32,927 nucleotides of DNA from a virus (taxonomy: Duplodnaviria > Heunggongvirae > Uroviricota > Caudoviricetes): IMG/VR virus record IMGVR_UViG_2671181122_000013; one strand, 5' to 3'. How positions within the stretch are numbered: the stretch's first letter is position 1; each line of letters starts with the position of its first letter. A program made the position numbers and the translations under genes. Of this stretch, positions 8,298 to 32,927 are shown piece by piece. The notes beneath the pieces are model-generated. The model worked only from the letters and a program-made list of their open reading frames with translations, had not been told where the DNA came from and did not search any database.

Positions 8298-8891
8298 CTA
8301 TTTATCCCGGTTGGCTAAGGGATGACACAATTTATTTTTTGTCACGGAGGCGGGGAATTTTTTATAGAGCGTGGACAGGCCAATATCAAAAATCAGTGCC
8401 ACGCGTTGACGTGATTCCCCTGCAGCCAACAACCGCCCGGCCTGCTCCCACTCACTCGCGGTGAGTTTCGAACGTCTGCCACCAATACGACCTTTAGCTC
8501 TGGCCGCTTCCAGTCCGGCGCGAGTCCGCTCGACAATGAGTTCTCGTTCCGTTTCAGCCAGGGCACCCATCACATGAAAGAAAAAACGTCCCATCGGCGT
8601 GCTGGTATCAATGGCATCCGTCAGGCTGCGAAAATTAACGCCGCGTTCGCGCAGTTCCTCAACCAGAATGACCAGATGCCGCATACTACGCCCCAGCCTG
8701 TCCAGCTTCCAGACCACCAGAGTGTCACCTGCTGATAATGTTCTGAGCAGTTTTTTCAGTCCCGGTCGGTCGGACTTCGTGCCGCTGATTTTATCCTCAA
8801 AAATCAGCTCACATCCTGCACACTCCAGCGCGTTACGCTGCAATTCCGTGTTCTGGTCATTTGTTGACACGCGCACATAGCCAATAAGCAT
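8298..8891 (-). CDS. Site-specific DNA invertase, serine recombinase of the Gin/Pin/Hin/Cin family (about 197 aa)
   Basis: N-terminus MLIGYVRVSTNDQNTELQRNAL with catalytic-serine context and C-terminal HTH; very similar to remembered Gin/Pin sequences. Start taken at the second ATG (8891). Confidence 0.9.
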   Translation of the reverse strand: MLIGYVRVSTNDQNTELQRNALECAGCELIFEDKISGTKSDRPGLKKLLRTLSAGDTLVVWKLDRLGRSMRHLVILVEELRERGVNFRSLTDAIDTSTPMGRFFFHVMGALAETERELIVERTRAGLEAARAKGRIGGRRSKLTASEWEQAGRLLAAGESRQRVALIFDIGLSTLYKKFPASVTKNKLCHPLANRDK

Positions 8892-8918
8892 GAGCATCCC
8901 CCTGAATAAAAACCGGAG

Positions 8919-9332
8919 ATGATGCCAGTTGCCCGTTATCTCTGCATTTTCATAAACGTTGGTTTGGGAGAAGCGGCAAAACGGGATGTGGGGACAGGGG
9001 AAAATCAGATACCGGACATGGCCTCTTTTGCCAGTGGTGATGGATGGATGAAATTACCCAACGGGAAAATCCTGCAATATGGTCGTGGTGCGGTTACGCC
9101 GACATTATCGACGCAAACAATGAGAATTACATTCAGCATCCCTTTCCCCAAAAAAGCGGACTGCGCCATGCTTACTCATTCTGGTGATGGCGGTGCGCCT
9201 TTAGGCGCTGGGCGAGGGTTCGTGATGACTGCAGAAGGCCCAACGTTAACCGGCTTTAATTCTGCTTACAGAACGTCATCAACCAGCGACACGGTATCGA
9301 TGAATTACAGTTGGTGGGCTGTTGGTGAGTAA
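8919..9332 (+). CDS. Silent alternative tail-fibre C-terminal cassette (expressed only after inversion, fused to the H constant region)
   Basis: Plus-strand ORF reading through the crossover site in frame (…NVGLGE…); shares the GLGE junction with H; ends in a tail-fibre-like C-terminus; followed by a tail-fibre assembly gene. Confidence 0.6.
   Translation: MMPVARYLCIFINVGLGEAAKRDVGTGENQIPDMASFASGDGWMKLPNGKILQYGRGAVTPTLSTQTMRITFSIPFPKKADCAMLTHSGDGGAPLGAGRGFVMTAEGPTLTGFNSAYRTSSTSDTVSMNYSWWAVGE
8947..8972. repeat. 26-bp invertase crossover site (left), TTTTCATAAACGTTGGTTTGGGAGAA
   Basis: Imperfect palindrome of the TTnnnnnAAACC/GGTTT type; 14 bp (TTGGTTTGGGAGAA) are an exact inverted repeat of 10847..10860. 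Confidence 0.75.
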
Positions 9333-9343
9333 TTTTATTCAGG

Positions 9344-9796
9344 GTGATTTATATGAACGAATATGTTTATAGCGCAAGGCATAATGCTTTTTTCCCTGTG
9401 GATATGATTGATAAATATAAATCAGAGGGATGGGATTTATCAGACGCTAAGGAAGTAAATCAAAATATTATCAGTGAGTTTATGGCTGAACCGCCACAAG
9501 GAAAAATCCGTATTGCCGGAGATGATGGGCTGCCTGCGTGGGCAGATATTCCTCCACCCACGCATGAAGAGCTTATTGAAATTACTGAATCAGAAAGACA
9601 GCTACTAATTAACCAGGCCAACGAATACATGAACAGTAAGCAATGGCCCGGTAAAGCCGCTATTGGTCGTCTGAAAGGTGAGGAACTGGCGCAATATAAT
9701 TTGTGGCTGGATTATCTGGATGCACTGGAGCTGGTTGATACCTCCAGTGCGCCAGATATTGAATGGCCTACGCCTCCGGCAGTTCAGGCCAGATGA
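9344..9796 (+). CDS. Alternative tail-fibre assembly protein (Tfa/U'-like), 150 aa
   Basis: C-terminal motif LWLDYLDALELVDTSSAPDIEWP typical of Tfa chaperones; convergent with and overlapping the 3' end of the active-orientation Tfa gene. Confidence 0.75.
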   Translation: MIYMNEYVYSARHNAFFPVDMIDKYKSEGWDLSDAKEVNQNIISEFMAEPPQGKIRIAGDDGLPAWADIPPPTHEELIEITESERQLLINQANEYMNSKQWPGKAAIGRLKGEELAQYNLWLDYLDALELVDTSSAPDIEWPTPPAVQAR

Positions 9797-10370
9797 CATC
9801 CGGCGCGGTGCTGGTATCTGTTGCCGTCACCGCGTCAATGTAATCCAGCACGGCGTTAAGTCGGGTTGTTTCTGCCTGCGTCAACTTCCGTCCGGCCTGT
9901 AATTTCAGCTGAATCAGACTAATGGAAACCATTGCTGCATCAATCAGTGACTGGCGCTGTGCTTCTGCCGCGTCTACTGCGGCGCTATGCTGTGCCTCAG
10001 TATCCGTCACCCATTTCTCACCATCCCATTTATCATATGGCGTTAACGGGGCGATAGTGGTTGTATTTTCAGGGTAATCACCCGGAGCTGTGATTTCTTT
10101 GGCGTCTCCCGTTTCGGTGTTATAGACGATTTCACCGCGATGGTCTGACACATATTCCCATGATTTTAAATCCACAGAACGGCAAATTGTATAACCAGCT
10201 TTATGTGTAACTGGTGCATCTAAACAAGAACATGCCGGGATACCGACGCCAACCGCAAGATATTCAGTTGATGTGGAAATATATTCCCGCGTTTCACCAT
10301 CATAGTTATAAACGGTAATATCCCCTGCCTTTGTAGCAACAAGTCCACTATTTAATATTGCTTTATCCAT
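9768..10370 (-). CDS. Tail-fibre assembly protein (gpG-position, Tfa family), 200 aa
   Basis: C-terminal motif LNAVLDYIDAVTATDTSTAPDVIWP; directly downstream of H on the same strand. Confidence 0.8.
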   Translation of the reverse strand: MDKAILNSGLVATKAGDITVYNYDGETREYISTSTEYLAVGVGIPACSCLDAPVTHKAGYTICRSVDLKSWEYVSDHRGEIVYNTETGDAKEITAPGDYPENTTTIAPLTPYDKWDGEKWVTDTEAQHSAAVDAAEAQRQSLIDAAMVSISLIQLKLQAGRKLTQAETTRLNAVLDYIDAVTATDTSTAPDVIWPELPEA

Positions 10371-11686
10371 TATGCTGCTCTCACGATATAGTTAAATGCA
10401 ATGCTTCTTGGTCTGTTCTCTGAGGCAGTTGGCACTACTCTTGAAGCATCAAAATTGACTAAATGAGGATTGTTTGGGGTATTTGGAATGATTGTGGTGT
10501 TACCTATCGTATTACGAAGTGCTGATTGACTTACAAAAACACCACTCGCTGTATTAAAGCTAATAGCCGCATTAGCTTCGGTTTGTCCATTACCAAATGT
10601 GCCGGTTATATTACGAATAGCATCCCCCTGAGCAGACAGAATTTCGCGCCCCGCGTCAATACCGCGCCCGTCATCCCAGCCACGAATAAACTCACCACGT
10701 AAATCAGGCAATTTATTTGTCGGATAAGCCTTTGCCAGTTCCGGGTATTCTTCAGCAGAAAAAGCGGCACCGTTGCATTTCAGCCAGCCTGTTGGCGGAG
10801 TGGCGGAAGGCCACGGAACAGGCACGCCAACGGGTAATGCCGAACCTTCTCCCAAACCAAGGTATGCAAGAAGACCGGCAACATCCTTCCCACTCAAATG
10901 AGTCAGCGTCTCATCCAGTGGCTGCTTACCTGACAGCGCATTGTTAATGGTGGTACTGAATTTCGGGTCATTGTTGATAGCTGCGGCAATTTCTTTCAGT
11001 GTGTCCAGCGTGTCAGGGGCACCGTTAATCAGAGCGGTAATAGCGGCCTGTACAAACGCAGTGGTCGCAATCCGCGTGGTGTTATTTCCTGCGGCAGGCG
11101 TCGGCGCTTTTGGTTCTCCGGTAAATGTCGGATTATGTTTCTGTGCATACTGGGTATGAGGATCCTGTGCGGCAATGTGGTTTCTCATCTGGTCATCCAC
11201 ATACAGCTTTAATTCCAGGACTTTATCATCCACGTATTTACGGGTCGCCAGTACCACCGACGGGTCGATTTTCAGCGTGATGGCTTCGGTATTCGTGACA
11301 ACCAGAATCATGCGGATAGTCTGGGTACGACCACTGCCTTCCTGCAACTGCGGTTTGTACGTTTCCGGGCAGTTCGCCACCGCAATGAGTACGCCTTCAT
11401 CATCATAAAGCCCAATCTCACGGATCCAGAATCCGCCCTCGTTCTCAGGGATGATTTGCTCCGCAATAATCTGGCTCTGGTTGTTCGGGTCAACACTCAG
11501 AAGATTCAGCGGCGCGATGCGTTTCTGGTTAATCAGTTTTGTCTGTGCCGGGTCTGGTGTCGGCAAGACACCATTCGCATCACCAACGGCCATTTGCGTC
11601 AGATTCAGCTTACTGCCGAGCATCGTCGCGTTAGCCAGCCGTGCTGCGCCCTGATTAGTCAGAATGGCGTAGTATTTCACTGTCAT
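10370..11686 (-). CDS. H: Tail fibre protein gpH, 438 aa (constant N-terminus plus currently expressed variable C-terminus)
   Basis: Position between I and the Tfa gene; shorter than the 669-aa P2 gpH, consistent with a replaced C-terminal module. Confidence 0.85.
   Translation of the reverse strand: MTVKYYAILTNQGAARLANATMLGSKLNLTQMAVGDANGVLPTPDPAQTKLINQKRIAPLNLLSVDPNNQSQIIAEQIIPENEGGFWIREIGLYDDEGVLIAVANCPETYKPQLQEGSGRTQTIRMILVVTNTEAITLKIDPSVVLATRKYVDDKVLELKLYVDDQMRNHIAAQDPHTQYAQKHNPTFTGEPKAPTPAAGNNTTRIATTAFVQAAITALINGAPDTLDTLKEIAAAINNDPKFSTTINNALSGKQPLDETLTHLSGKDVAGLLAYLGLGEGSALPVGVPVPWPSATPPTGWLKCNGAAFSAEEYPELAKAYPTNKLPDLRGEFIRGWDDGRGIDAGREILSAQGDAIRNITGTFGNGQTEANAAISFNTASGVFVSQSALRNTIGNTTIIPNTPNNPHLVNFDASRVVPTASENRPRSIAFNYIVRAA
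10847..10872. repeat. 26-bp invertase crossover site (right), inside gene H
   Basis: TTCTCCCAAACCAAGGTATGCAAGAA; inverted partner of 8947..8972; falls near H codon 271 (…AYLGLGEGS…). Confidence 0.75.
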
Positions 11687-14179: not shown

Positions 14180-14245
14180 AACGGGAAGGATGCCGCCGGG
14201 TCATACCGGCGGCAATGTGACGATGAGGTGTCGGGAATGGCACAA

Positions 14246-20619: not shown

Positions 20620-22392
20620 ATGACCATCACCACAGACACCACTCTTTTACACGACCCGCGTCGTCAGGCGGCGCTGCTGTACTGGCAGGGGTTTTCCGTG
20701 CCGCAGATTGCCGCCATGTTGCAGATGAAACGCCCGACGGTGCAGAGCTGGAAACAGCGCGACGGCTGGGACAGCGTTGCCCCCATCAGCCGTGTCGAAA
20801 TGAGTCTGGAAGCGCGGCTGACCCAGCTCATCATCAAACCGCAGAAAACCGGTGGTGACTTCAAGGAAATTGACCTGCTCGGACGCCAGATTGAACGACT
20901 GGCACGGGTAAACCGCTACAGTCAGACCGGCAACGAGGCAGACCTTAATCCGAACGTCGCTAACCGCAACAAAGGCGGGCGTCGCAAACCGAAAAAGAAT
21001 TTTTTCAGTGACGAGGCCATCGAAAAGCTGGAGCAGATTTTCTTTGAGCAGTCTTTCGACTATCAGTTGCACTGGTATCGCGCCGGGCTTGAGCACCGCA
21101 TCCGCGATATCCTGAAATCCCGCCAGATTGGCGCGACGTTTTATTTTTCCCGCGAGGCGCTGCTGCGTGCCCTGAAAACCGGTCATAACCAGATTTTTCT
21201 GTCGGCCAGTAAAACGCAGGCGTATGTGTTCCGCGAATACATCATCGCCTTTGCCCGTCTGGTTGACGTTGACCTGACCGGTGACCCGATTGTCCTGGGC
21301 AATAACGGCGCAAAACTGATTTTTCTCGGCACCAACTCCAACACCGCGCAGAGTCATAACGGCGACCTGTACGTCGATGAGATTTTCTGGATCCCGAATT
21401 TTCAGATACTGCGTAAGGTGGCATCAGGTATGGCCTCACAGAGTCACCTGCGCTCGACCTATTTCTCCACCCCGTCCACGCTGGCGCACGACGCCTACCC
21501 GTTCTGGTCGGGTGAACTGTTTAACCGGGGACGCGCCAGTGCCGCCGAACGCGTGGAAATCGACGTCAGTCATAACGCCCTTGCCGGTGGGCTTCTCTGT
21601 GCGGACGGCCAGTGGCGACAGATTGTCACCATTGAGGACGCCCTGAAAGGCGGCTGCACGCTGTTCGACATTGAGCAGCTCAAACGCGAAAACAGCGCCG
21701 ACGATTTTAAAAACCTGTTCATGTGTGAATTTGTTGACGACAAGGCATCGGTGTTCCCGTTCGAGGAGCTGCAACGCTGCATGGTCGACACGCTGGAAGA
21801 ATGGGAAGACTATGCGCCGTTTGCCGCCAATCCGTTCGGCTCCCGCCCGGTATGGATTGGTTACGACCCGTCACACCGTGGCGACAGCGCCGGATGCGTG
21901 GTACTGGCACCGCCGGTGGTGGCCGGTGGCAAATTCAGAATACTTGAGCGTCACCAGTGGAAAGGTATGGACTTTGCCACCCAGGCGGAATCCATCCGCA
22001 AACTCACCGAAAAATATAACGTCGAATACATCGGTATTGATGCCACCGGCCTCGGTGTCGGCGTGTTCCAGCTCGTGCGCTCGTTCTATCCCGCCGCGCG
22101 CGATATCCGCTACACGCCGGAAATGAAAACCGCAATGGTGCTCAAGGCAAAAGACGTTATCCGTCGTGGCTGTCTGGAATATGACGTCAGCGCCACCGAC
22201 ATCACCAGCTCGTTTATGGCTATCCGCAAGAGCATGACCAGCAGCGGACGCAGCGCCACCTATGAGGCCAGCCGCAGCGAGGAAGCCAGCCACGCCGACC
22301 TCGCATGGGCGACCATGCACGCCCTGTTAAATGAGCCACTCACCGCCGGTATCAGCACACCGCTGACATCCACCATTCTGGAGTTTTACTGA
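20620..22392 (+). CDS. P: Terminase large (ATPase) subunit gpP, 590 aa
   Basis: Start at MTITTDTTLLHDP gives the 590 aa of P2 gpP; divergent from O. Confidence 0.9.
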   Translation: MTITTDTTLLHDPRRQAALLYWQGFSVPQIAAMLQMKRPTVQSWKQRDGWDSVAPISRVEMSLEARLTQLIIKPQKTGGDFKEIDLLGRQIERLARVNRYSQTGNEADLNPNVANRNKGGRRKPKKNFFSDEAIEKLEQIFFEQSFDYQLHWYRAGLEHRIRDILKSRQIGATFYFSREALLRALKTGHNQIFLSASKTQAYVFREYIIAFARLVDVDLTGDPIVLGNNGAKLIFLGTNSNTAQSHNGDLYVDEIFWIPNFQILRKVASGMASQSHLRSTYFSTPSTLAHDAYPFWSGELFNRGRASAAERVEIDVSHNALAGGLLCADGQWRQIVTIEDALKGGCTLFDIEQLKRENSADDFKNLFMCEFVDDKASVFPFEELQRCMVDTLEEWEDYAPFAANPFGSRPVWIGYDPSHRGDSAGCVVLAPPVVAGGKFRILERHQWKGMDFATQAESIRKLTEKYNVEYIGIDATGLGVGVFQLVRSFYPAARDIRYTPEMKTAMVLKAKDVIRRGCLEYDVSATDITSSFMAIRKSMTSSGRSATYEASRSEEASHADLAWATMHALLNEPLTAGISTPLTSTILEFY

Positions 22393-23426
22393 TGAGCAAG
22401 AAAAAAGGGAAAACACCGCAACCTGCGGCAAAAAAAATGACCGCCAGCGCCCCGAAAATGGAGGCATTCACCTTTGGTGAGCCGGTGCCGGTACTCGACC
22501 GCCGTGACATTCTGGATTACGTCGAGTGCATCAGTAACGGCAGATGGTATGAGCCACCGGTCAGCTTTACCGGTCTGGCAAAAAGCCTGCGTGCTGCCGT
22601 GCATCACAGCTCCCCGATTTACGTCAAACGCAATATTCTGGCCTCGACATTTATCCCGCATCCGTGGCTTTCCCAGCAGGATTTCAGCCGCTTTGCGCTG
22701 GATTTTCTGGTGTTCGGTAATGCGTTTCTGGAAAAGCGTTACAGCACCACCGGTAAGGTCATCAGACTGGAAACCTCACCGGCAAAATATACCCGCCGTG
22801 GCGTGGAGGAGGATGTTTACTGGTGGGTGCCGTCCTTCAACGAGCCGACACCTTTCACGCCCGGCTCCGTGTTTCATCTGCTGGAGCCGGATATTAATCA
22901 GGAGCTGTACGGCATGCCGGAATATCTCAGCGCCCTTAACTCTGCCTGGCTGAATGAGTCAGCCACGCTGTTCCGCCGCAAGTATTACGAAAACGGCGCA
23001 CATGCCGGATACATCATGTACGTCACTGATGCCGTGCAGGATCGCAACGATATCGAAATGCTTCGCGAAAACATGGTCAAGTCGAAAGGCCGCAACAACT
23101 TTAAAAATCTGTTTCTCTATGCCCCGCAGGGAAAAGCCGACGGCATTAAAATTATCCCGCTCAGTGAAGTGGCAACGAAGGACGATTTTTTTAATATCAA
23201 AAAAGCCAGCGCCGCTGACCTGCTGGACGCGCACCGCATCCCCTTTCAGTTGATGGGCGGCAAGCCGGAGAACGTCGGGTCGCTGGGTGATATTGAGAAA
23301 GTGGCAAAGGTCTTTGTCCGCAATGAGCTTATCCCGTTACAGGACAGGATCCGCGAGATAAACGGCTGGCTCGGTCAGGAGGTCATCCGCTTTAAAAACT
23401 ACTCACTGGACACTGACAACGGCTGA
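22392..23426 (+). CDS. Q: Portal protein gpQ, 344 aa
   Basis: 344 aa equals P2 gpQ; translationally coupled to P. Confidence 0.9.
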   Translation: MSKKKGKTPQPAAKKMTASAPKMEAFTFGEPVPVLDRRDILDYVECISNGRWYEPPVSFTGLAKSLRAAVHHSSPIYVKRNILASTFIPHPWLSQQDFSRFALDFLVFGNAFLEKRYSTTGKVIRLETSPAKYTRRGVEEDVYWWVPSFNEPTPFTPGSVFHLLEPDINQELYGMPEYLSALNSAWLNESATLFRRKYYENGAHAGYIMYVTDAVQDRNDIEMLRENMVKSKGRNNFKNLFLYAPQGKADGIKIIPLSEVATKDDFFNIKKASAADLLDAHRIPFQLMGGKPENVGSLGDIEKVAKVFVRNELIPLQDRIREINGWLGQEVIRFKNYSLDTDNG

Positions 23427-23590: not shown

Positions 23591-23609
23591 GTGCTATCCC
23601 CGCCTCGCC
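23591..23609. other. cos-like site (19 bp), P2-type cohesive-end sequence with one mismatch
   Basis: Reverse complement GGCGAGGCGGGGATAGCAC against P2 cos GGCGAGGCGGGGAAAGCAC as remembered; located just beyond Q as in P2. Confidence 0.65.
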
Positions 23610-23726
23610 CGCCCGCTTAATGGGGCGGTTTTAATGCGGGTGCATAACCACTTCTTACCCACATCAATTCTGGTCAAGCCAAGCAGTACAGCTTATGATT
23701 TCAAGATGCAAACTCATGCAGCAATG

Positions 23727-24920
23727 TTAAATTCTGCATCCATCGGTTTGAAAATGTGATCCGTTTTTCGAATTCAAACTCAACTCTGTTTGACTCTTTT
23801 GAACATTAATAGTTTTACCAGTAAGGACATCCAAAACCCCTGCAGCAACAGCCTGCGCCAATTTACAAGGCACAGCATTCCCTATCTGACGCCAAATTGA
23901 CGAATTTTTCCCCACAAAGACATAATTACTCGGGAATGTTTGAATCAAAAGAGCCTCATCTATCGTTAGTCGACGTAAACGACTAGGTACATCGTGCATA
24001 TCTTTTGGCTCACCACCATTCATTAGATGATTATGATAAGTCTCAACATAACTTGTTGAGCCATCATAAAGGTGTTCTTCATCAATAATTGGTGTCCTAT
24101 TCCCCCCCATAGAAGCAGCTATAGTTGAAGCATACCCATTCGGGTTAATTGGTCTTCCCTGCCCGTTAAACATCATTCCCGCGTAAGGTGACTTCCGTAA
24201 TACTGGCTTAGCAGCATTTGTAATCCTTGCATTACAGACTCTTGAATTGTTTGGATTACCCGCTCGCCCTAAAGGCCGAATAATCTCACCAACTGTGGGC
24301 GAAAGATATTGGTATTTTTTTATCGCCGCCTCAACTCGTTTCACATCATTTTCGGAACGAAACCCTATAAAAAACATACGTTCCCTATTCTGAGGAACGC
24401 CAAAATCTTTAGAATTCAGCACCAGCAAGGCTGAACGATAGCCTGACTTTTCAGCCATCTTAAACAGTTCACACCTAACTGGTTCAAATTTGGACAACTG
24501 TGCTAAAGCCTTAACATTCTCCATAACAAAGCATTCTGGTTGAATTATATCCACCGCCCGCATGAATGACATAACCAGCTTACTACGTGGATCATGAGCG
24601 TCCATTTTCCCTGCCACAGAAAATCCTTGGCATGGAGGCCCACCAAAAACACAACCTATATTTTTCAGCCCAGACAATTCACTTAGCATCTCATCAATAT
24701 CACCACAAAAAACAGGTGATTCATGATTAAGCTTAAATGTATCACATGCATCCTTATCTATATCATTGGCCCAAACTGTTCGGAACCCGGCATTAGAGAA
24801 ACCGACATCCATCCCTCCTGCCCCAGTAAATAAGCTCACCGCTGAAATTTTGTTCACTTCTTTAGCACCAATTATTCGATTTTGGAATAAAACCAATGAT
24901 AGGTAAGGATCGACACACAA
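23727..24920 (-). CDS. C5-cytosine DNA methyltransferase (Type II modification enzyme)
   Basis: Motif I LFTGAGGMDVGF, motif IV GGPPCQGFSVAG, motif VI FVMENVKAL, motif VIII QNRERMFFIGF, motif X IGNAVP. The ORF-track start at 24920 is a TTG codon; the real start may be the GTG near 24857, giving an MNKISAVSLFTGAGG N-terminus. Confidence 0.9.
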   Translation of the reverse strand: MCVDPYLSLVLFQNRIIGAKEVNKISAVSLFTGAGGMDVGFSNAGFRTVWANDIDKDACDTFKLNHESPVFCGDIDEMLSELSGLKNIGCVFGGPPCQGFSVAGKMDAHDPRSKLVMSFMRAVDIIQPECFVMENVKALAQLSKFEPVRCELFKMAEKSGYRSALLVLNSKDFGVPQNRERMFFIGFRSENDVKRVEAAIKKYQYLSPTVGEIIRPLGRAGNPNNSRVCNARITNAAKPVLRKSPYAGMMFNGQGRPINPNGYASTIAASMGGNRTPIIDEEHLYDGSTSYVETYHNHLMNGGEPKDMHDVPSRLRRLTIDEALLIQTFPSNYVFVGKNSSIWRQIGNAVPCKLAQAVAAGVLDVLTGKTINVQKSQTELSLNSKNGSHFQTDGCRI

Positions 24921-25210
24921 TCAATCACCTTCTAAACCACATGGCAAAACGACAACCAACTATACATGATCATAGATACAGGTGCCTAGTCCAGCTTCTC
25001 ACCAAACTACGCAAAGAAGCTTCTCTTTCGCAGTCAGAATTGGCCATTTTTCTAGGATTATCACAATCAGATATATCTAAAATCGAAAGCTTTGAAAGGC
25101 GATTAGATGCTTTAGAACTATTTGAATTATTAGAGGTGGTTGCAAGCCGATTAGGTCTACCAATGGATATCTTACTAAAGGACACCTATGAAAGTATTAG
25201 TAAATCATGA
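24896..25210 (+). CDS. Small HTH (XRE/Cro-type) protein, candidate controller (C) protein of the R-M cassette
   Basis: HTH-like segment LSQSELAIFLGLSQSDISKIE; divergent from the methyltransferase; its 3' end overlaps the downstream nuclease gene by 23 nt (translational coupling). Confidence 0.6.
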   Translation: MIGKDRHTINHLLNHMAKRQPTIHDHRYRCLVQLLTKLRKEASLSQSELAIFLGLSQSDISKIESFERRLDALELFELLEVVASRLGLPMDILLKDTYESISKS

Positions 25211-26243
25211 GCAAGCCTATAATGCAATTATAAATGCAATCAACGATGCAAAAAAATTAACTGATTACAAAACAAATAATCAATGGGTCTCCATTCAAAA
25301 TGTAATTTTAGGCACCCACCTTACATACAGATATATACTTATTACTGGTTTACTTGCAAAAGCAACAGACCCTAGAGTAAACCCTCTGGCTTTACAAGCT
25401 AATGCCCCCGTAGACGGAGCCTATGATGCAAGAAGTTTATGTCATTCGGTAATAGTAGGCAAAGTAGAAGGCCCATTTTTAGAGGGTAAGTTAGGCGCAT
25501 CAAATGAGCCATTTCTAAATAAACCTGCTCGTTACATGCTCCACTCCTCTGATAACCCTGTGCGCAGAGGAAATGATAAGGTTTTACAACAACTTTCAAT
25601 TGATATATTACATGCAGCAACAACCCAAACCTTAGCTTATGAAATGCTTGTTATTGCATTATATTTTACCCTACAGCGAACCAATAGAGTTATAACGCCG
25701 AACTCAATTAATTTTGATTTTCATAAGATTATTTATAATATTATATCTCATCCTTGTGATGGAGAAACATGCGCGATTGCTGCCGCAATTTCGTTACATT
25801 TATTAGGTGAACAAAGAGGATGGATAATAAAAGCACATCCCGTCAATCAGGCCGGTAGCTCCTCAAAAGAGATACTGGACATAGATGTATATCATGACGA
25901 TATAGTTTTCCTTTCTATAGAAGTGAAAGACAAACCATTTAATTATCAAGATGTTAATCACGCCGTTTCAAAAGCATCTGCATCCGGGATTTCAAAAGTT
26001 ATCTTCCTTAAAGGGCCAAGAGCAACAAACTTAGATATTGATGAGTCTCTTGCGATTGAGAACGCTGCGACAAAAGGTATTTCACTAAGCTTTAGTGACG
26101 TCATGACATTCACAACAACATGTTATGCGTTATCGCCACTATTAAGTAATGACAGAATAATAGATTTCATAAATAACACTTTAAAAGACATCAGAGCTAA
26201 AGATAGCACTATAGAATACATACAATCCATATTTAAAAATTAA
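25188..26243 (+). CDS. Putative restriction endonuclease (PD-(D/E)xK-like), 351 aa
   Basis: Motif …LDIDVYHDDIVFLSIEVKDK… (Asp followed by a hydrophobic strand and E-x-K); AGGA ribosome-binding site 7 nt upstream of the ATG; AT-rich; adjacent to the methyltransferase and HTH genes. Confidence 0.55.
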   Translation: MKVLVNHEQAYNAIINAINDAKKLTDYKTNNQWVSIQNVILGTHLTYRYILITGLLAKATDPRVNPLALQANAPVDGAYDARSLCHSVIVGKVEGPFLEGKLGASNEPFLNKPARYMLHSSDNPVRRGNDKVLQQLSIDILHAATTQTLAYEMLVIALYFTLQRTNRVITPNSINFDFHKIIYNIISHPCDGETCAIAAAISLHLLGEQRGWIIKAHPVNQAGSSSKEILDIDVYHDDIVFLSIEVKDKPFNYQDVNHAVSKASASGISKVIFLKGPRATNLDIDESLAIENAATKGISLSFSDVMTFTTTCYALSPLLSNDRIIDFINNTLKDIRAKDSTIEYIQSIFKN

Positions 26244-26250
26244 TACTCCC

Positions 26251-26288
26251 GGGACAATATAGTTCACAACTACGTTGTCCCTTTTAAA
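26251..26288 (+). terminator. Hairpin (GGGACAA…TTGTCCC) followed by TTTTAAAA, probable terminator of the nuclease gene
   Basis: 7-bp inverted repeat with a 17-nt loop and T-rich tail directly after the stop at 26243. Confidence 0.45.
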
Positions 26289-26336
26289 ACAGTCAAGCAA
26301 TTGCATTATATTAATTATTTACTTTTTATCACAATC

Positions 26337-28649
26337 TCATAATTCATACGCTCTCCAATCACATATAACAGGATAACTGAAGCTTCTCCCGTCGTAATTT
26401 ACAGTTGCCCCACGCGCCAGCGCCTCAAGCTCCCATCGCTGCGGCCTGATACCGTTCTGAGCAAGGTCAACGCGGATAAGGGTGATTTGCAATCGTTCAG
26501 ACCTGGTCAGTCTGGCCGATGGTGCTATTTCATGCGGTTTTAACGGGCTTCCGTTTCTTTGCTGACGGTTTGGTGTTATCAGGTCGTGTTTTAATGCGCC
26601 CCTGAGCGCCCTCACGACCTCCGGGTCATTCCATTCGATAACACCGTCATCAACCAGATTAAGCACTGCTGCGGCGTGTTCAGAAGGTGTGGGAGCCGGT
26701 AACGAAGTATCACCACTGGTGAGCTTTCCACAGTTATTGACAGGACTCCGAGGCGCGGCGATGCCGCTTTTTAAAGTCAAAGGCTCAACGACCGGAACTT
26801 TCGGCACAATGCGCCAGTCCGTCGTTCTGGTGATATGAATATGACGCGCGCCGAGATGCGGCGCGTAAATGCCGACCACTCTCTCGACTTCTTCCTCGTA
26901 CTCGTTAACGTCATCCGACGGACTACGGGCGACCCTGACAGTCTGACAATCGCGCGGGACATTTGCCCCACCCTGCGCGCTGATATACAGCGCAAAATCA
27001 CCACTGTCTGCGGCGGCGCGTGCAGCCTCGACGCGCTCGTCAAACTCATCAGCAATGCTGACGCCGCGAGGCAATTTGCGTAGTTCACGGTAAGCCCCCA
27101 TTGTCGGCAGGCCAACCGTTTTAAATTGCGGAATGCGCCACGTTGACGCCCATGCGGTAACAGCCGCGGCAGTATCTTTCAGCGGTCTGCCGGTATCGTT
27201 ATCGAGCTGCCCATCCAGTGCATAGCCGTCGATATTTTTTGAGATGTATTTCGCGATATACCCCGCAGCACCGCCCCGATTAAGATGTTTTGCCTGAAAA
27301 CGGTTTCGCGCGGCTCCTCTTTCGTCGCCATCCTCTTTGAGCGCATAGCGACGCATGATTTCGATAATCTGGTTACGCTGGCGTGGATTACAAAAAAGCA
27401 TCATATGCCAGTGCGGCGTTCCGTCGTGGTGTGGCTCGACGACTCGCAAACCGTAGACCTGTAAATCATTATCCTTGAATGCCGTGCGCATCAGGCTCCA
27501 GATACGGCAGAGATAACGCTGCGCATCCTTTGGATTAAATGCCTCATCATTCCAGCCGTGATTAAGCTGGACGGTTTTATTTTCGCCTTTTCCAACCTGA
27601 CGTGTCGGGTGATACTTTGACGGCGCGGTAAGCGTGATAAACATCCCCACATCACCCTCTGCGGCGGCGTAACGCTCAATACCGGCAATGGTGTTCATCA
27701 GCTCCATCCGGCGAATTTCAGGATTAGAAATACTGCCCATCACCTTACTGATAAGGTCGATGCGCTCGCCGGTTTCCCTGTTTTCAAGGTCACACGATTT
27801 AAGAAATTCCAGATTTGCCTGGCGGCGCGCACGCACATCACGAATGGCATGTTTACTGGCATAAGGAGAACGGTCTTTATTGACCTCCCCGACAGCTATC
27901 AGTAACGCCTCATGCCAGCGCATACGCTGGCCTTTAAGCTGATGAGTCCACCACTCATCGTTAAACAGGCGGGCAATGGCAGAATATGCCTGCCTCGTGG
28001 TCATCTGTCCTTTACGGTATTTTTTCCAGTAGAGCGGGGAAATATTGAAAGCACGTGCAGCGCCAGCAACATGACCATAGAGGTGAGCCTGCGCCTCATC
28101 CGTAAACAGCGATTCTTTTTCGCCATGTGCATCAACCCAGGCATCGCAGAGTTCCTCATACATCATGAAAAGCTGCGATGAGATACGGGCAGCAAACTTT
28201 TTCAGCTCCTTGTCATTCATTCCCGGCAGGCGCGCATAGTGGTCACGCTCTGCCAGAAACAGCAACGACGCGTCGGTGTTCATTTCATGGCGCTGATTCA
28301 CACGCTCAATGCGCGGCCATAAACGACGCTGAAAAGTGGATGTGAGGAAATAAAACCCGTGCACCGGGCTTTTATTGCGCCGGATGTAGTCATAGCGTGA
28401 AGTAAACAGCGAGCGCAAAAAGTAAGGCAGGCGGTTAATCGTGGATAAAACACCTTGCACCTGATGCATCTCGTCACGTGTAAGGGGTCTTTCGCGCCCG
28501 ACGGCCTCGCGTGGCGCGTTCCATGCATAAGCACCGGTAAACGCCTTACCGGTGCCTGCAGCAAATGCTGACGGAGGGACAAAACGCCCGGAGGCTTTAA
28601 CGGCCATATGAGCCAAAAGCCTCTGAACAACGCCTGCTGAGTTGCTCAA
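26337..28649 (-). CDS. A: Replication initiation protein gpA (rolling-circle nickase), up to 770 aa
   Basis: Size close to the 761-aa P2 gpA; last gene of the early operon; the real start may be the internal ATG at about 28607 (MAVKASGRF…). Confidence 0.85.
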   Translation of the reverse strand: MSNSAGVVQRLLAHMAVKASGRFVPPSAFAAGTGKAFTGAYAWNAPREAVGRERPLTRDEMHQVQGVLSTINRLPYFLRSLFTSRYDYIRRNKSPVHGFYFLTSTFQRRLWPRIERVNQRHEMNTDASLLFLAERDHYARLPGMNDKELKKFAARISSQLFMMYEELCDAWVDAHGEKESLFTDEAQAHLYGHVAGAARAFNISPLYWKKYRKGQMTTRQAYSAIARLFNDEWWTHQLKGQRMRWHEALLIAVGEVNKDRSPYASKHAIRDVRARRQANLEFLKSCDLENRETGERIDLISKVMGSISNPEIRRMELMNTIAGIERYAAAEGDVGMFITLTAPSKYHPTRQVGKGENKTVQLNHGWNDEAFNPKDAQRYLCRIWSLMRTAFKDNDLQVYGLRVVEPHHDGTPHWHMMLFCNPRQRNQIIEIMRRYALKEDGDERGAARNRFQAKHLNRGGAAGYIAKYISKNIDGYALDGQLDNDTGRPLKDTAAAVTAWASTWRIPQFKTVGLPTMGAYRELRKLPRGVSIADEFDERVEAARAAADSGDFALYISAQGGANVPRDCQTVRVARSPSDDVNEYEEEVERVVGIYAPHLGARHIHITRTTDWRIVPKVPVVEPLTLKSGIAAPRSPVNNCGKLTSGDTSLPAPTPSEHAAAVLNLVDDGVIEWNDPEVVRALRGALKHDLITPNRQQRNGSPLKPHEIAPSARLTRSERLQITLIRVDLAQNGIRPQRWELEALARGATVNYDGRSFSYPVICDWRAYEL

Positions 28650-30183: not shown

Positions 30184-30374
30184 TTCCAGACCCTCCGGCT
30201 TTTCAGAAAGGTCAGAGTCTTTTTTAACGGACTCTGTTTTTTGGTGCGGATAATGATTCCCTTACGCCCCTTACCGTGGGTGATGGTGAAGTCAATCGCC
30301 CTGGGGCTTTCGTTACGCAATAACTGAGCAATACAACGAGGCTCATTCATACGGTTCTCCTTAACGTGGTTCAC
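30180..30374 (-). CDS. Small early-operon protein (P2 orf78 position), 64 aa
   Basis: Located between cox and B; overlaps both. Confidence 0.5.
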   Translation of the reverse strand: MNHVKENRMNEPRCIAQLLRNESPRAIDFTITHGKGRKGIIIRTKKQSPLKKTLTFLKSRRVWK

Positions 30375-30636
30375 CGAGACCTAACCACATCAACCAGCCG
30401 TCACGAATCTCTTTAGGACGGCTTTCATAAGCCAGTTTTAGTCCGTTATTCCATGCCGGAAGGTATACCCAATATTCACCAGCACGCCCCGATACTGACT
30501 GAGGGTCAGTAATCTCAATAACTGGTAATTTCCCTTTCTCAATCATGCCCCTTACAGCTCTTGGAGTTTTACCAATGAGTTTTGCAAACTCCTGATAAGG
30601 CACGGCATCAGTCACGCTTACAAGCTGTCTATTCAT
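30361..30636 (-). CDS. cox: Cox, excision directionality factor and Pc repressor, 91 aa
   Basis: 91 aa equals P2 Cox; first gene of the early operon, divergent from C. Confidence 0.85.
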   Translation of the reverse strand: MNRQLVSVTDAVPYQEFAKLIGKTPRAVRGMIEKGKLPVIEITDPQSVSGRAGEYWVYLPAWNNGLKLAYESRPKEIRDGWLMWLGLGEPR

Positions 30637-30757
30637 CTGCTACGATTCTCCCTTAGTGCTTCTAATGGCTCCTAATGGCTAATTATTGCCTAAAAGGATA
30701 ACTCCAGAAGCACAACATTTCACACTATCAGCAAGAAATTACGCAATCGGAGTAATT
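30637..30757. promoter_or_regulatory. Immunity switch region (Pe/Pc promoters and operators) with tandem 10-bp repeats at 30651..30680
   Basis: 121-bp intergenic region between divergent cox and C; repeats CCTTAGTGCT / TCTAATGGCT / CCTAATGGCT at 10-bp phasing; GGAG ribosome-binding site 5 nt before the C start. Confidence 0.6.
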
Positions 30758-31057
30758 ATGTCAATAGACGTTTCGGAGAAGTTGAAGCTAATCCGTGAAT
30801 CTGAAAGGTTAAACCGTAAAGAATTCAGTGAATTAACTGGTGTAGCCTACAGCTCACTTTCGAGCTATGAGAGCCGGTCAAAAAACGCTGGAGTTGAAGC
30901 CATAATGAAGGTCTTACAACATCCCAGATTTACTAAATATACTTTGTGGTTCATGACTGATCAGGTAGCTCCAGAAGCCGGGCAAATTGCGCCCGCTCTC
31001 GCACACTTTGGGCAAAACGAAACAACGTCGCCCCACTCCGGTCAAAAGACTGGTTAA
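30758..31057 (+). CDS. C: Immunity repressor C, 99 aa
   Basis: Start at the internal ATG (MSIDVSEKLKL…) gives the 99 aa of P2 C; HTH-like N-terminal region; upstream of int. Confidence 0.8.
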   Translation: MSIDVSEKLKLIRESERLNRKEFSELTGVAYSSLSSYESRSKNAGVEAIMKVLQHPRFTKYTLWFMTDQVAPEAGQIAPALAHFGQNETTSPHSGQKTG

Positions 31058-32282: not shown

Positions 32283-32609
32283 TGCATAAGCCCTATCCCT
32301 GGTCACCGTCTTCCATTGACCACATCGATAGAATCCTCCTTCATAGCACGATGCCTTTCACTTATCGACATCGTGCTCGCACAGGTTCCGGTTACGCACA
32401 GCCAGAACGCGCATGTTTGACGCTTACCAAAAAATGAACCTAAAGCATTGGAATATTTTTGACATCATTTTCTGATGGCTGCATAAAATAAAAATTCTGC
32501 TTTAGTTTCATCTATCTGTTTGTCATTAATACTCACATTCAATAATAGTGTTGAAGAATATCCCATCACAGATAAAATAAATATGTGCATGGTAGTCTTG
32601 AATCTATTC

Positions 32610-32927
32610 TCACTCTCCACATTTGAATGTCAGACGAGCGACGCCATGTAATCCTGCACCTTCTGTCTTCAGGTCAACTATCTGCATTTTTTTGCCCTGA
32701 GTAACACAGAAATGAGTTGCATCATTTTTTACTATATTTTCTGCACCAGATATTCTACCCCTGGCTAAAGAAGCTTCGGCTTCGGTGTAGTATTGGTTAT
32801 CGAGTTTACGCTGAATATTACTTTTATATGCAAGGCCAATTTTACCGATACTTGTCTCATCATTATGCACAGCACAACCAGACATAAGAAAAACACTAAT
32901 TAATGATATAGCAGCTATCTTTTTCAC
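32610..32927 (-). CDS. yegR: Host lipoprotein, YegR-like (105 aa as tracked); start coincides with the window edge (GTG), may be truncated
   Basis: Signal peptide with lipobox LMSGC; position on the int side of the prophage matches K-12 yegR beyond the ogrK/yegZ remnant; name assigned from context and partial recollection. Confidence 0.5.
   Translation of the reverse strand: MKKIAAISLISVFLMSGCAVHNDETSIGKIGLAYKSNIQRKLDNQYYTEAEASLARGRISGAENIVKNDATHFCVTQGKKMQIVDLKTEGAGLHGVARLTFKCGE

Follow-up and report, generated by a model that had tools for sequence, protein, structure and literature searches.

The cargo next to cos in the P2-like prophage of our window (the whole 32,927-nucleotide stretch analyzed) is, judged by its sequence, almost certainly EcoT38I, a restriction-modification system of Type IIP, here in the cos-proximal gpA–gpQ hotspot of an apparently intact prophage. 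This system is already known: its proteins have been deposited, and crystal structures of the nuclease (R) and the controller protein (C) have been solved. Because the cassette corresponds to a characterized system, the finding is real but ordinary, and little is added where system, specificity, regulation, two crystal structures and P2 position are already on record. A previous sequence-only reading had placed three genes of a conventional system between cos and gene A. The open reading frames confirmed the genes and their positions, and the system proved to be a Type II restriction-modification system in the cos-proximal gpA–gpQ hotspot of a P2-like prophage. That reading had also expected an uncharacterized defense specificity, which did not hold, since R, C and the methyltransferase (M) match the deposited entries 7E8R/7EDB, 2EF8 and Q83VT0, respectively.

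Table 1. Coordinates in the window of the cassette, its genes and sites, and the flanking P2-like genes.
Feature	Coordinates	Strand	Evidence
gpQ portal gene, left flank of hotspot	22392..23426	+	98% identical in amino acids to P2 Q (343/344 residues); PF04860
cos cohesive-end sequence, GGCGAGGCGGGGATAGCAC on the minus strand	23591..23609		18/19 match to P2 cosL/cosR, one mismatch
Foreign cassette, 2.7 kb	23638..26367		Without blastn homology to P2; 38.4% GC
M.EcoT38I, C5-cytosine DNA methyltransferase	23727..24857	-	376 aa from GTG 24857; ORF extends to TTG 24920 (397 aa)
Candidate C-box palindrome, TATTC-GATTTTG-GAATA	24873..24889		M–C intergenic; conservation only
C.EcoT38I controller protein, 89-aa HTH	24941..25210	+	HTH_3 1.8e-06; PADLOC 'Control_protein'
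33-nt block in C ORF, codons 7–17, ACTATACATGATCATAGATACAGGTGCCTAGTC	24959..24991		Conserved at synonymous sites
R.EcoT38I, Type IIP restriction endonuclease, SacI family, PD-(D/E)xK fold, 351 aa	25188..26243	+	PDB, Pfam and PADLOC matches
Intrinsic terminator after R	26251..26285	+	Hairpin 26251–26281 then TTTT; dG -15.7 kcal/mol, z -4.3 vs shuffles
gpA replication initiator, right flank of hotspot	26337..28607	-	97% amino acid identity to P2 A, residues 1–754 of 761; PF05840 4.8e-124

Comparison with P2 showed that the homologies to its left and right ends join at cos. By blastn, P2 homology breaks at 23637 and returns at 26368, so that old, tin and orf91 have been replaced together with the last few codons of A, whose stop now lies at 26337. 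Replacement of old and tin had been proposed; orf91 is also lost. The AT-richness noted earlier is real, with 38.4% GC in the cassette against 53.7% in the rest of the prophage, although the estimate of 25–35% was too low. GC content is 41.7% for M, 37.0% for C and 35.4% for R. It is lowest in the R–A spacer (26.5% in a 200-nt window), the only part to fall so low. An Rfam search of the cassette gave zero matches. M and R lie head-to-head, with exactly 330 nt between their starts (24857 and 25188), and C sits in this gap and overlaps the start of R by 23 nt. The small HTH gene had been described as divergent. Its HTH_3 domain was confirmed and it does diverge from M, but it is co-directional with R.

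R is identical at 349 of 351 positions (99.4%; 776 bits, residues 1–351 to 1–351) to the protein crystallized as "EcoT38I restriction endonuclease" (PDB 7E8R/7EDB), a set that includes a DNA complex. The two substitutions, A13V and I298V, are conservative and lie outside invariant columns, and the invariant residues D231, D233, E245 and K247 are intact. The SacI-family profile PF09566 was matched over its full length (6.8e-76, above the curated threshold). R also hit the PADLOC model REase_II (830 bits), and no NCBIfam model matched the nuclease. An AF2 model of R (pLDDT 91.6) aligned by Foldseek to 7EDB_A with a TM score of 0.85. On these matches the 351-aa protein, in which a PD-(D/E)xK-like motif had been noticed, is a PD-(D/E)xK Type II restriction endonuclease of the SacI family.

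M matched PF00145 (1.4e-66, profile positions 2–320 of 324) and TIGR00675 (6.6e-59, 200 bits). Motifs I, IV, VI, VIII and X, previously read from the sequence, are all present, and the PF00145 match covers the whole profile. In the translated 397-aa ORF they are LFTGAGG (I, 30–36), GPPCQGFS with the catalytic PCQ (IV, 94–101), ENV (VI, 134–136), QNRER, of the form QxRxR (VIII, 177–181), and GNAVP (X, 347–351), with motif IX as RRLTIDEALLIQTFP (316–330). Over 363/363 residues M matches UniProt Q83VT0 (taxon Peduovirus P2) at 100% identity, and it carries 13 extra C-terminal residues, which the M of strain FORC_082 also has. The entries Q83VT0 and PDB 2EF8 do not themselves bear the name EcoT38I as searched; partly from the codon usage described below, we take them to be the EcoT38I methyltransferase and its controller protein. 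Methylase versions 397 aa long occur on at least 183 and at least 150 contigs. We rejected the TTG at 24920 as the start of M, since the position of 24857 is an ATG in homologues. GTG 24857 is preferred on account of this homologous ATG and of the codon fingerprint of EcoT38I in REBASE. The latter comprises AUA at codon 15 of R and GGG at codons 12 and 15 of M (PMC6456624, Table 3). With M starting at 24857 this fingerprint is reproduced exactly here, including the AUA of R.

EcoT38I was reportedly cloned, characterized and mapped to the A–Q position of a P2 prophage by Kita et al. in 2003, in J Bacteriol. The reported layout likewise has a 330-nt M–R gap, C overlapping R and integration at yegQ/yegR. 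Its abstract is said to give the site as GRGCYC, cut as GRGCY^C by a homodimer and methylated at the inner cytosine, and reportedly describes positive regulation of R and negative regulation of M by C. The study is also reported to cover binding of C to its operator. A literature search on 7E8R/7EDB or GRGCYC found nothing relevant, and the other papers naming EcoT38I merely cite it, save for the codon table in PMC6456624.

The prophage in our window (1507–32282) sits between yegQ/cyaR and yegR. Apart from the tail-fiber genes H and G, which are replaced, all P2 essential genes are full length (82–100% amino acid identity). From its sequence the prophage appears fully intact, and transfer of EcoT38I between hosts by the phage is therefore plausible. 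The chromosomal site is presumably P2 locI. GRGCYC is missing from the whole prophage in all four of its hexamers. P2 itself also has 0 sites, and the range is 0–5 when it is taken together with four further P2-likes that lack the cassette. Given this near-absence of the EcoT38I site, EcoT38I should spare P2 relatives as well as its carrier. Adaptation of the prophage to its own cargo was rejected as the cause of the depletion, because cassette-free P2-likes are likewise depleted and GRGCYC is rare in E. coli chromosomal DNA too.

Residues 6–89 of C are identical to PDB 2EF8 (84/84), and its ATG at 24941 is kept in all homologues. A 104-aa HTH ORF from ATG 24896 was rejected as C. This ATG is not conserved (AGG in one locus, L007) and is further disfavored by indels of 4 to 14 nt between it and the conserved ATG. 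The candidate C-box is set 15 nt ahead of the start codon of M, with a -35-like TTGGAA within its right half, and is invariant in eight enterobacterial cassettes. In cyanobacteria, gammaproteobacteria and planctomycetes, C homologues that neighbor SacI-family nucleases are preceded by a variant with a symmetrical change, TATGC-GATTTTG-GCATA. About 25 loci, spread over several phyla, have the combined form TATKC-GATTTTG-GMATA upstream of the C homologue. From this conservation we infer that the palindrome is the C binding site, as a prediction. A consensus promoter scan returned only weak -10 candidates for the C/R transcript. Sorokin et al. 2009 (PMC2632904) list C.EcoT38I with those REBASE C proteins whose genes have a conserved motif upstream.

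A second conserved element lies inside the C gene. The block listed in Table 1 is the most conserved 30-nt stretch of the cassette alignment, with 93% invariant columns against at most 77% elsewhere. Among codons for invariant amino acids, 9 of 11 are themselves invariant in the block, against 6 of 42 otherwise (Fisher p=4.8e-5). Its synonymous positions do not vary across enterobacterial cassettes with nucleases down to 57% identity. RNA structure is disfavored as the cause, as neither strand folds stably (z +1.4 and +0.8), and the block does not fit a 35-bp GTG-centered C-box of the PvuII type. Its minus strand carries a promoter-like TAGGCA-18-TATAGT. We tentatively suggest, as a possibility below even chance, that the block may be an undescribed regulatory site of the EcoT38I-type switch, for instance the promoter of M, or another operator for C, lying within the C coding sequence and facing the C/R promoter. 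Combined with the lack of GRGCYC in P2-like genomes, such a site would mark the cassette as a finely tuned passenger, harmless to the phage. The block may already have been mapped in the 2003 study of Kita et al. It is sharply bounded and offers a small, testable lead on the wiring of the switch.

In the mechanism that we propose, M would methylate C5 of cytosine in the host copies of the recognition site and R would cut unmethylated sites on incoming DNA. C is probably co-transcribed with R, whose start it overlaps, and would bind TATTC-N7-GAATA, covering the -35-like TTGGAA of the C/R transcript. Binding would turn R on only after a build-up of C and would lower M, a switch that fits the regulation reported in 2003. 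Restriction would thereby be delayed on entry of the prophage into a new host with unmethylated DNA. As in other Type II systems, a cell that loses the cassette should be penalized by post-segregational cutting, so the cassette could stabilize both itself and the prophage.

Of 5,426 complete E. coli genomes, 20 have the cassette at about 99% identity, and it is absent from the 50,697 phage records searched. Orthologous M-C-R cassettes with nucleases 57–79% identical occupy the Q–A slot of P2-likes in Serratia, Ewingella and another host. Diverged orthologues in the same slot point to a long association with the P2-like phage family, or to repeated exchange within it. They also leave unsupported the recent horizontal acquisition that had been read from base composition, and low GC is common to all enterobacterial relatives of the cassette.

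EcoT38I may mainly be a selfish addiction module that stabilizes itself and the prophage by post-segregational killing, with defense against other phages secondary. We regard this as a minority reading of some weight, compatible with the main one. All that remains at the yegQ–cyaR site of a Pseudescherichia genome (L010) is the M-C-R cassette with fragments of cos and gpA, which reads as a prophage that decayed around a retained cassette. In FORC_082 (nuclease accession WP_000866882) the cassette persists in a prophage with truncated sheath, gpI, gpM (small terminase) and scaffold (gpO) genes. The TH38 prophages of the 2003 study are also said to be defective. With few GRGCYC sites in P2-likes and in E. 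coli DNA, many local invaders would offer few targets. Selection for defense, however, could explain retention equally well, and restriction would still act on phages and plasmids that are non-enteric or rich in sites. A nearly full-length prophage is present, moreover, in most of the complete genomes with the cassette. The cassettes in P2-like prophages of other genera and the Pseudescherichia survivor fit restriction-modification systems as self-stabilizing passengers.

An active EcoT38I system is also favored over an inactive or decayed relic, which we consider very improbable. Decay could be suspected from the two R substitutions and the 13-aa M extension relative to the references, and from the annotation of M as two CDS in at least one related genome. 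Yet all three ORFs are full length, the methyltransferase motifs and the invariant residues of R are intact, and A13V and I298V are both conservative. An R of exactly this sequence is known from 16 contigs and an M of exactly this sequence from 183, and an active R with an inactive M would be lethal. Least probable is a specificity other than GRGCYC, such as the strict GAGCTC of SacI, and hence a new one: the Pfam family is named after SacI and the site is not readable from sequence, but R is nearly identical to crystallized EcoT38I, DNA complex included, and it is all four GRGCYC hexamers, rather than GAGCTC alone, that are missing from the prophage, as in cassette-free P2-likes.

The slot occupied by EcoT38I had been called a variable hotspot, and comparison of occupancy among P2-likes bore this out. 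Others carry cdtABC, a DUF4238 protein, a ParB-domain protein with a methyltransferase, or a Fic protein. The P2-like gpA–gpQ anti-phage hotspot, with old and tin in P2, was defined by Rousset et al. 2022 (PMC9122126), whose Table S5A lists 'HTH + RE_SacI + DNA_methylase' with WP_000866882 as one of 1,650 arrangements. The present cassette occupies the same slot next to cos as this cargo and shows no difference of substance from it. EcoO109I, which that paper places on P4-like satellites by citing Kita et al. 1999, is another Type II system under C control. It too sits beside cos, in the hotspot of the P2 satellite that corresponds to this one, but differs in nuclease family (RE_EcoO109I) and mobile element.

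The closest match is EcoT38I of E. coli TH38 itself, with which the cassette shares R (349/351), C (84/84), M (363/363), the gene layout and the A–Q slot at yegQ/yegR. It differs in the apparently intact prophage, the A13V and I298V substitutions in R and the 13 additional C-terminal residues of M. Other SacI-family Type IIP endonucleases (PF09566) share the PD-(D/E)xK core and usually the M-C-R layout with a homologous C and C-box, whereas R is about 40% identical to most members. SacI requires GAGCTC, whereas EcoT38I reportedly accepts the degenerate GRGCYC. C-controlled Type II systems of the C.PvuII, C.EcoRV and C.EcoO109I types likewise have a small HTH controller that lies upstream of R and overlaps it, and a conserved operator upstream of C. 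The PvuII-type operator is a 35-bp, GTG-centered double box, in contrast to the single 17-bp palindrome TATKC-N7-GMATA seen here, and the enterobacterial EcoT38I-like clade is further set apart by the additional conserved block in its C ORF.

The window holds a P2-like prophage within an E. coli chromosome, inserted between yegQ and yegR flanks that lie 28 nt apart in prophage-free strains. Comparison with P2 (NC_001895) by blastn gave collinear matches at 94–98% identity. Full-length matches were obtained for the P2 proteins Q, P, O, N, M, L, X, Y, K, lysABC, R, S, V, W, J, I, FI, FII, E, T, U, D, ogr, int, cox, B, orf78–83 and A, with only the last residues of A and I missing. Identity was mostly 93–100%. 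Lower values were seen for I (82%) and, in an immunity region unlike that of P2, for Cox (84%) and repressor C (65%), where adjacent genes matched at 95–100%; the immunity specificity of the prophage probably differs from that of P2. Only the N-terminal part of H was matched, and searching the P2 proteins against the window found no counterpart of G, fun(Z), orf30, orf91, tin or old. The P2 fun(Z)–G–H region is substituted at 8298–11686. The CyaR gene straddles the left prophage junction at 1507, so that the P2 att core coincides in part with the 3' end of cyaR, which the integrated prophage regenerates. Overall, the prophage looks intact.

Features of the prophage, its flanks and the cassette (window coordinates)
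Feature	Coordinates	Basis or remark
yegQ (trhP) flank	1–1506	matched in 5,424/5,426 complete E. coli genomes
CyaR (RyeE) sRNA gene	1445–1530	Rfam RF00112, 100.7 bits
ogr to FI of P2	1507–8318	blastn
Gin/Cin-type DNA invertase	8298–8897	Resolvase + HTH_7
Alternative fibre tip, in apparently invertible tail-fibre segment	8919–9332	
Two tail-fibre assembly genes, apparently invertible segment	9344–9796 and 9768–10370	opposite strands
Tail fibre unlike that of P2	10370–11686	
I to V of P2	11858–14179	blastn
Gap where P2 orf30 is absent	14180–14243	64 nt
S to Q and cosL of P2	14244–23609	blastn
Cohesive-end sequence	23591–23609	1 mismatch vs P2
cosR of P2	23591–23637	blastn
M ORF	23727–24920	minus strand; PF00145 1.4e-66, TIGR00675 6.6e-59
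Palindrome, candidate operator	24873–24889	intergenic
C gene	24941–25210	plus strand; 89 aa
Conserved block in C ORF	24959–24991	33 nt
R ORF	25188–26243	351 aa; Pfam RE_SacI 6.8e-76
Terminator 3' of R	26251–26281	hairpin, then TTTT; dG -15.7, z -4.3
A to int and att core of P2	26368–32282	blastn
Immunity region	30364–31054	
yegR match	32283–32927	

The Q-A slot beside cos is occupied by a segment, 23638–26367, with no P2 counterpart by blastn against NC_001895. In place of old, tin, orf91 and the final few codons of A, it carries genes for a methyltransferase (M), a controller protein (C) and a nuclease (R). The sequence-only reading had correctly called both the slot and the kind of system, a conventional restriction-modification (R-M) cassette. 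The AT-richness it described also stands as a contrast, with 38.4% GC in the cassette (M 41.7, C 37.0, R 35.4) against 53.7% in the remaining prophage, although its figure of 25–35% GC was too low.

M is a complete C5-cytosine methyltransferase, as proposed, with every catalytic motif readable in the translation; PADLOC classed it as a Type II MTase. Its true start is GTG 24857, because UniProt Q83VT0 begins there, homologous cassettes carry ATG at the same position and this is the sole start fitting a REBASE-based codon table for EcoT38I (PMC6456624). The M proteins of the window and of E. coli FORC_082 have 13 additional C-terminal residues (KNGSHFQTDGCRI, 23727–23768) relative to Q83VT0, which ends ...SLNS; 397-aa versions of M are recorded from at least 183 and at least 150 contigs. 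In FORC_082, M is annotated as two CDS (L006 20306–21498) and R is intact; the split may be a sequencing frameshift.

A PADLOC model for Type II REases aligned with R over its full length (830 bits). The suggestion of a PD-(D/E)xK-like motif in this protein was right: D231, D233, E245 and K247, located in ILDIDVY...SIEVKDK, do not vary among 36 aligned family members 38–79% identical to the query. An AlphaFold model of R (pLDDT 91.6) superimposed with TM 0.85 on 7EDB_A, a DNA complex released in 2022.

The plus-strand HTH ORF encodes a controller protein (HTH_3; PADLOC Control_protein). A start at ATG 24896 was rejected, this codon being unconserved and separated by indels from the conserved ATG 24941, at which we therefore begin the gene. 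Its 3' end shares 23 nt with the start of R. Footprinting across nine cassettes found an invariant palindrome, TATTC-GATTTTG-GAATA, between M and C. A symmetrical variant with both half-sites changed, TATGC-GATTTTG-GCATA, lies upstream of C homologues beside SacI-family nucleases in cyanobacteria, gammaproteobacteria, planctomycetes and others. The candidate operator TATKC-GATTTTG-GMATA is kept from enterobacteria to cyanobacteria (comparison loci L016, L022, L028, L033 and L043–L075), the enterobacterial half-site change being G to T paired with C to A. The palindrome lies 15 nt ahead of the start codon of M, on its upstream side, and the TTGGAA in its right half (TTGGCA in other clades) resembles a -35 hexamer that could serve the C/R transcript. 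With this placement, a dimer of C on the palindrome could impede expression of M and also affect a putative C/R promoter. An effect of C on M and on C/R was reportedly described as such by Kita et al. in 2003.

Conservation across the 2.5-kb cassette alignment peaks not between genes but in the block inside the C ORF, where 93% of columns are invariant; no other stretch exceeds 77%. Among C codons whose amino acid is invariant across eight enterobacterial cassettes, 9/11 in codons 7–17 were themselves invariant vs 6/42 elsewhere (Fisher p = 4.8e-5). Pseudoalteromonas and cyanobacterial homologues keep the block's peptide with many synonymous differences, which places the constraint at the nucleic-acid level and confines it to the enterobacterial clade. 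The block contains rare codons (ATA, AGA, AGG, CTA), the palindrome ATGATCAT with a GATC within it and, on the minus strand, a promoter-like TAGGCA-18-TATAGT; fold prediction found no stable RNA structure in it. It might act as an M promoter directed towards that of C/R, as a second operator for C, or in the tuning of translation.

Of 5,426 complete E. coli genomes, 20 carry the cassette (~99% identity) and 1,553 have the adjoining cos flank; the cassette was found in no deposited phage genome (50,697 phage records searched). At least 13 of the 20 hold at least 88% of the ogr-to-cassette part of the prophage; that of FORC_082 is a decayed version. In other P2-like phages the slot contains cdtABC, a DUF4238 protein, a ParB-domain protein with a methyltransferase, or a Fic protein. 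Related M-C-R cassettes occupy the Q-A slot of P2-like prophages with REases 79%, 58% (Ewingella) and 57% (Serratia fonticola) identical. In a Yersinia aldovae P2-like prophage (60%; L012/L013 4316–7349) the cassette lies between att-proximal sequence and ogr, a position other than the Q-A slot. Others are found in an Enterobacter ludwigii chromosome (74%), beside a resolvase in Pseudoalteromonas (52%) and at the yegQ–cyaR site of Pseudescherichia (64%; GCA_032004355.1, L010 4368–7416). Around this last cassette no phage genes were found beyond a 63-nt cos fragment and a 180-nt gpA fragment, so the locus is the remnant of a P2-like prophage whose erosion has spared only the R-M system. This spread, which includes P2-like prophages of other genera, weighs against a simple recent horizontal acquisition, as first supposed, and favours a long association with P2-like phages. 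It is also compatible with the self-stabilising behaviour of Type II systems.

GRGCYC, which we take to be the EcoT38I site, occurs once in the window, at 1117 in the yegQ flank, vs 29.8 +/- 5.7 in dinucleotide shuffles. The prophage (1507–32282) has none, against 27 (first-order Markov) or 14.6 (third-order) expected. Depletion is not peculiar to cassette carriers in the comparison set (window prophage and loci L001–L006 and L014): P2 itself has 0 and four other P2-like phages without the cassette have 0–5, and in 44.8 kb of E. coli chromosome 4 sites were counted where the first-order and third-order models predict 39 and 17. GGCGCC, GCCGGC and CYCGRG are likewise nearly absent from P2-like phages. 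If GRGCYC is the site, EcoT38I should spare P2 relatives and find few targets in E. coli DNA.

Kita, Kawakami and Tanaka reportedly found in 2003 that EcoT38I recognises G(A/G)GC(C/T)C and that its M and R genes stand head to head 330 nt apart. In their reported description, the gap holds a C gene that overlaps R and whose product activates R and represses M, and the genes are inserted in a P2 prophage at locI, with A and Q on either side. Every checkable structural trait of this description is present in the window, where M start and R start are also 330 nt apart. A PDB sequence search with R returned a single match, the 351-aa 'EcoT38I restriction endonuclease' (7E8R/7EDB), identical at 349/351 positions (A13V and I298V differ). 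C is identical (84/84) to PDB 2EF8, and M is 100% identical to Q83VT0, filed by UniProt under Peduovirus P2. These matches overturn the expectation of an uncharacterised specificity. The rare codons also agree exactly with those of REBASE EcoT38I (PMC6456624 Table 3): in the window, codon 15 of R is AUA, and M has GGG as its codons 12 and 15. Rousset et al. 2022 (PMC9122126) count 1,650 arrangements at the gpA-gpQ locus, which they define as a hotspot, and their Table S5A lists 'HTH + RE_SacI + DNA_methylase' with REase WP_000866882, which is annotated at the Q-A locus of FORC_082. Since protein sequences, codons, layout and hotspot listing agree, the cassette, correctly detected, is the already known system EcoT38I.
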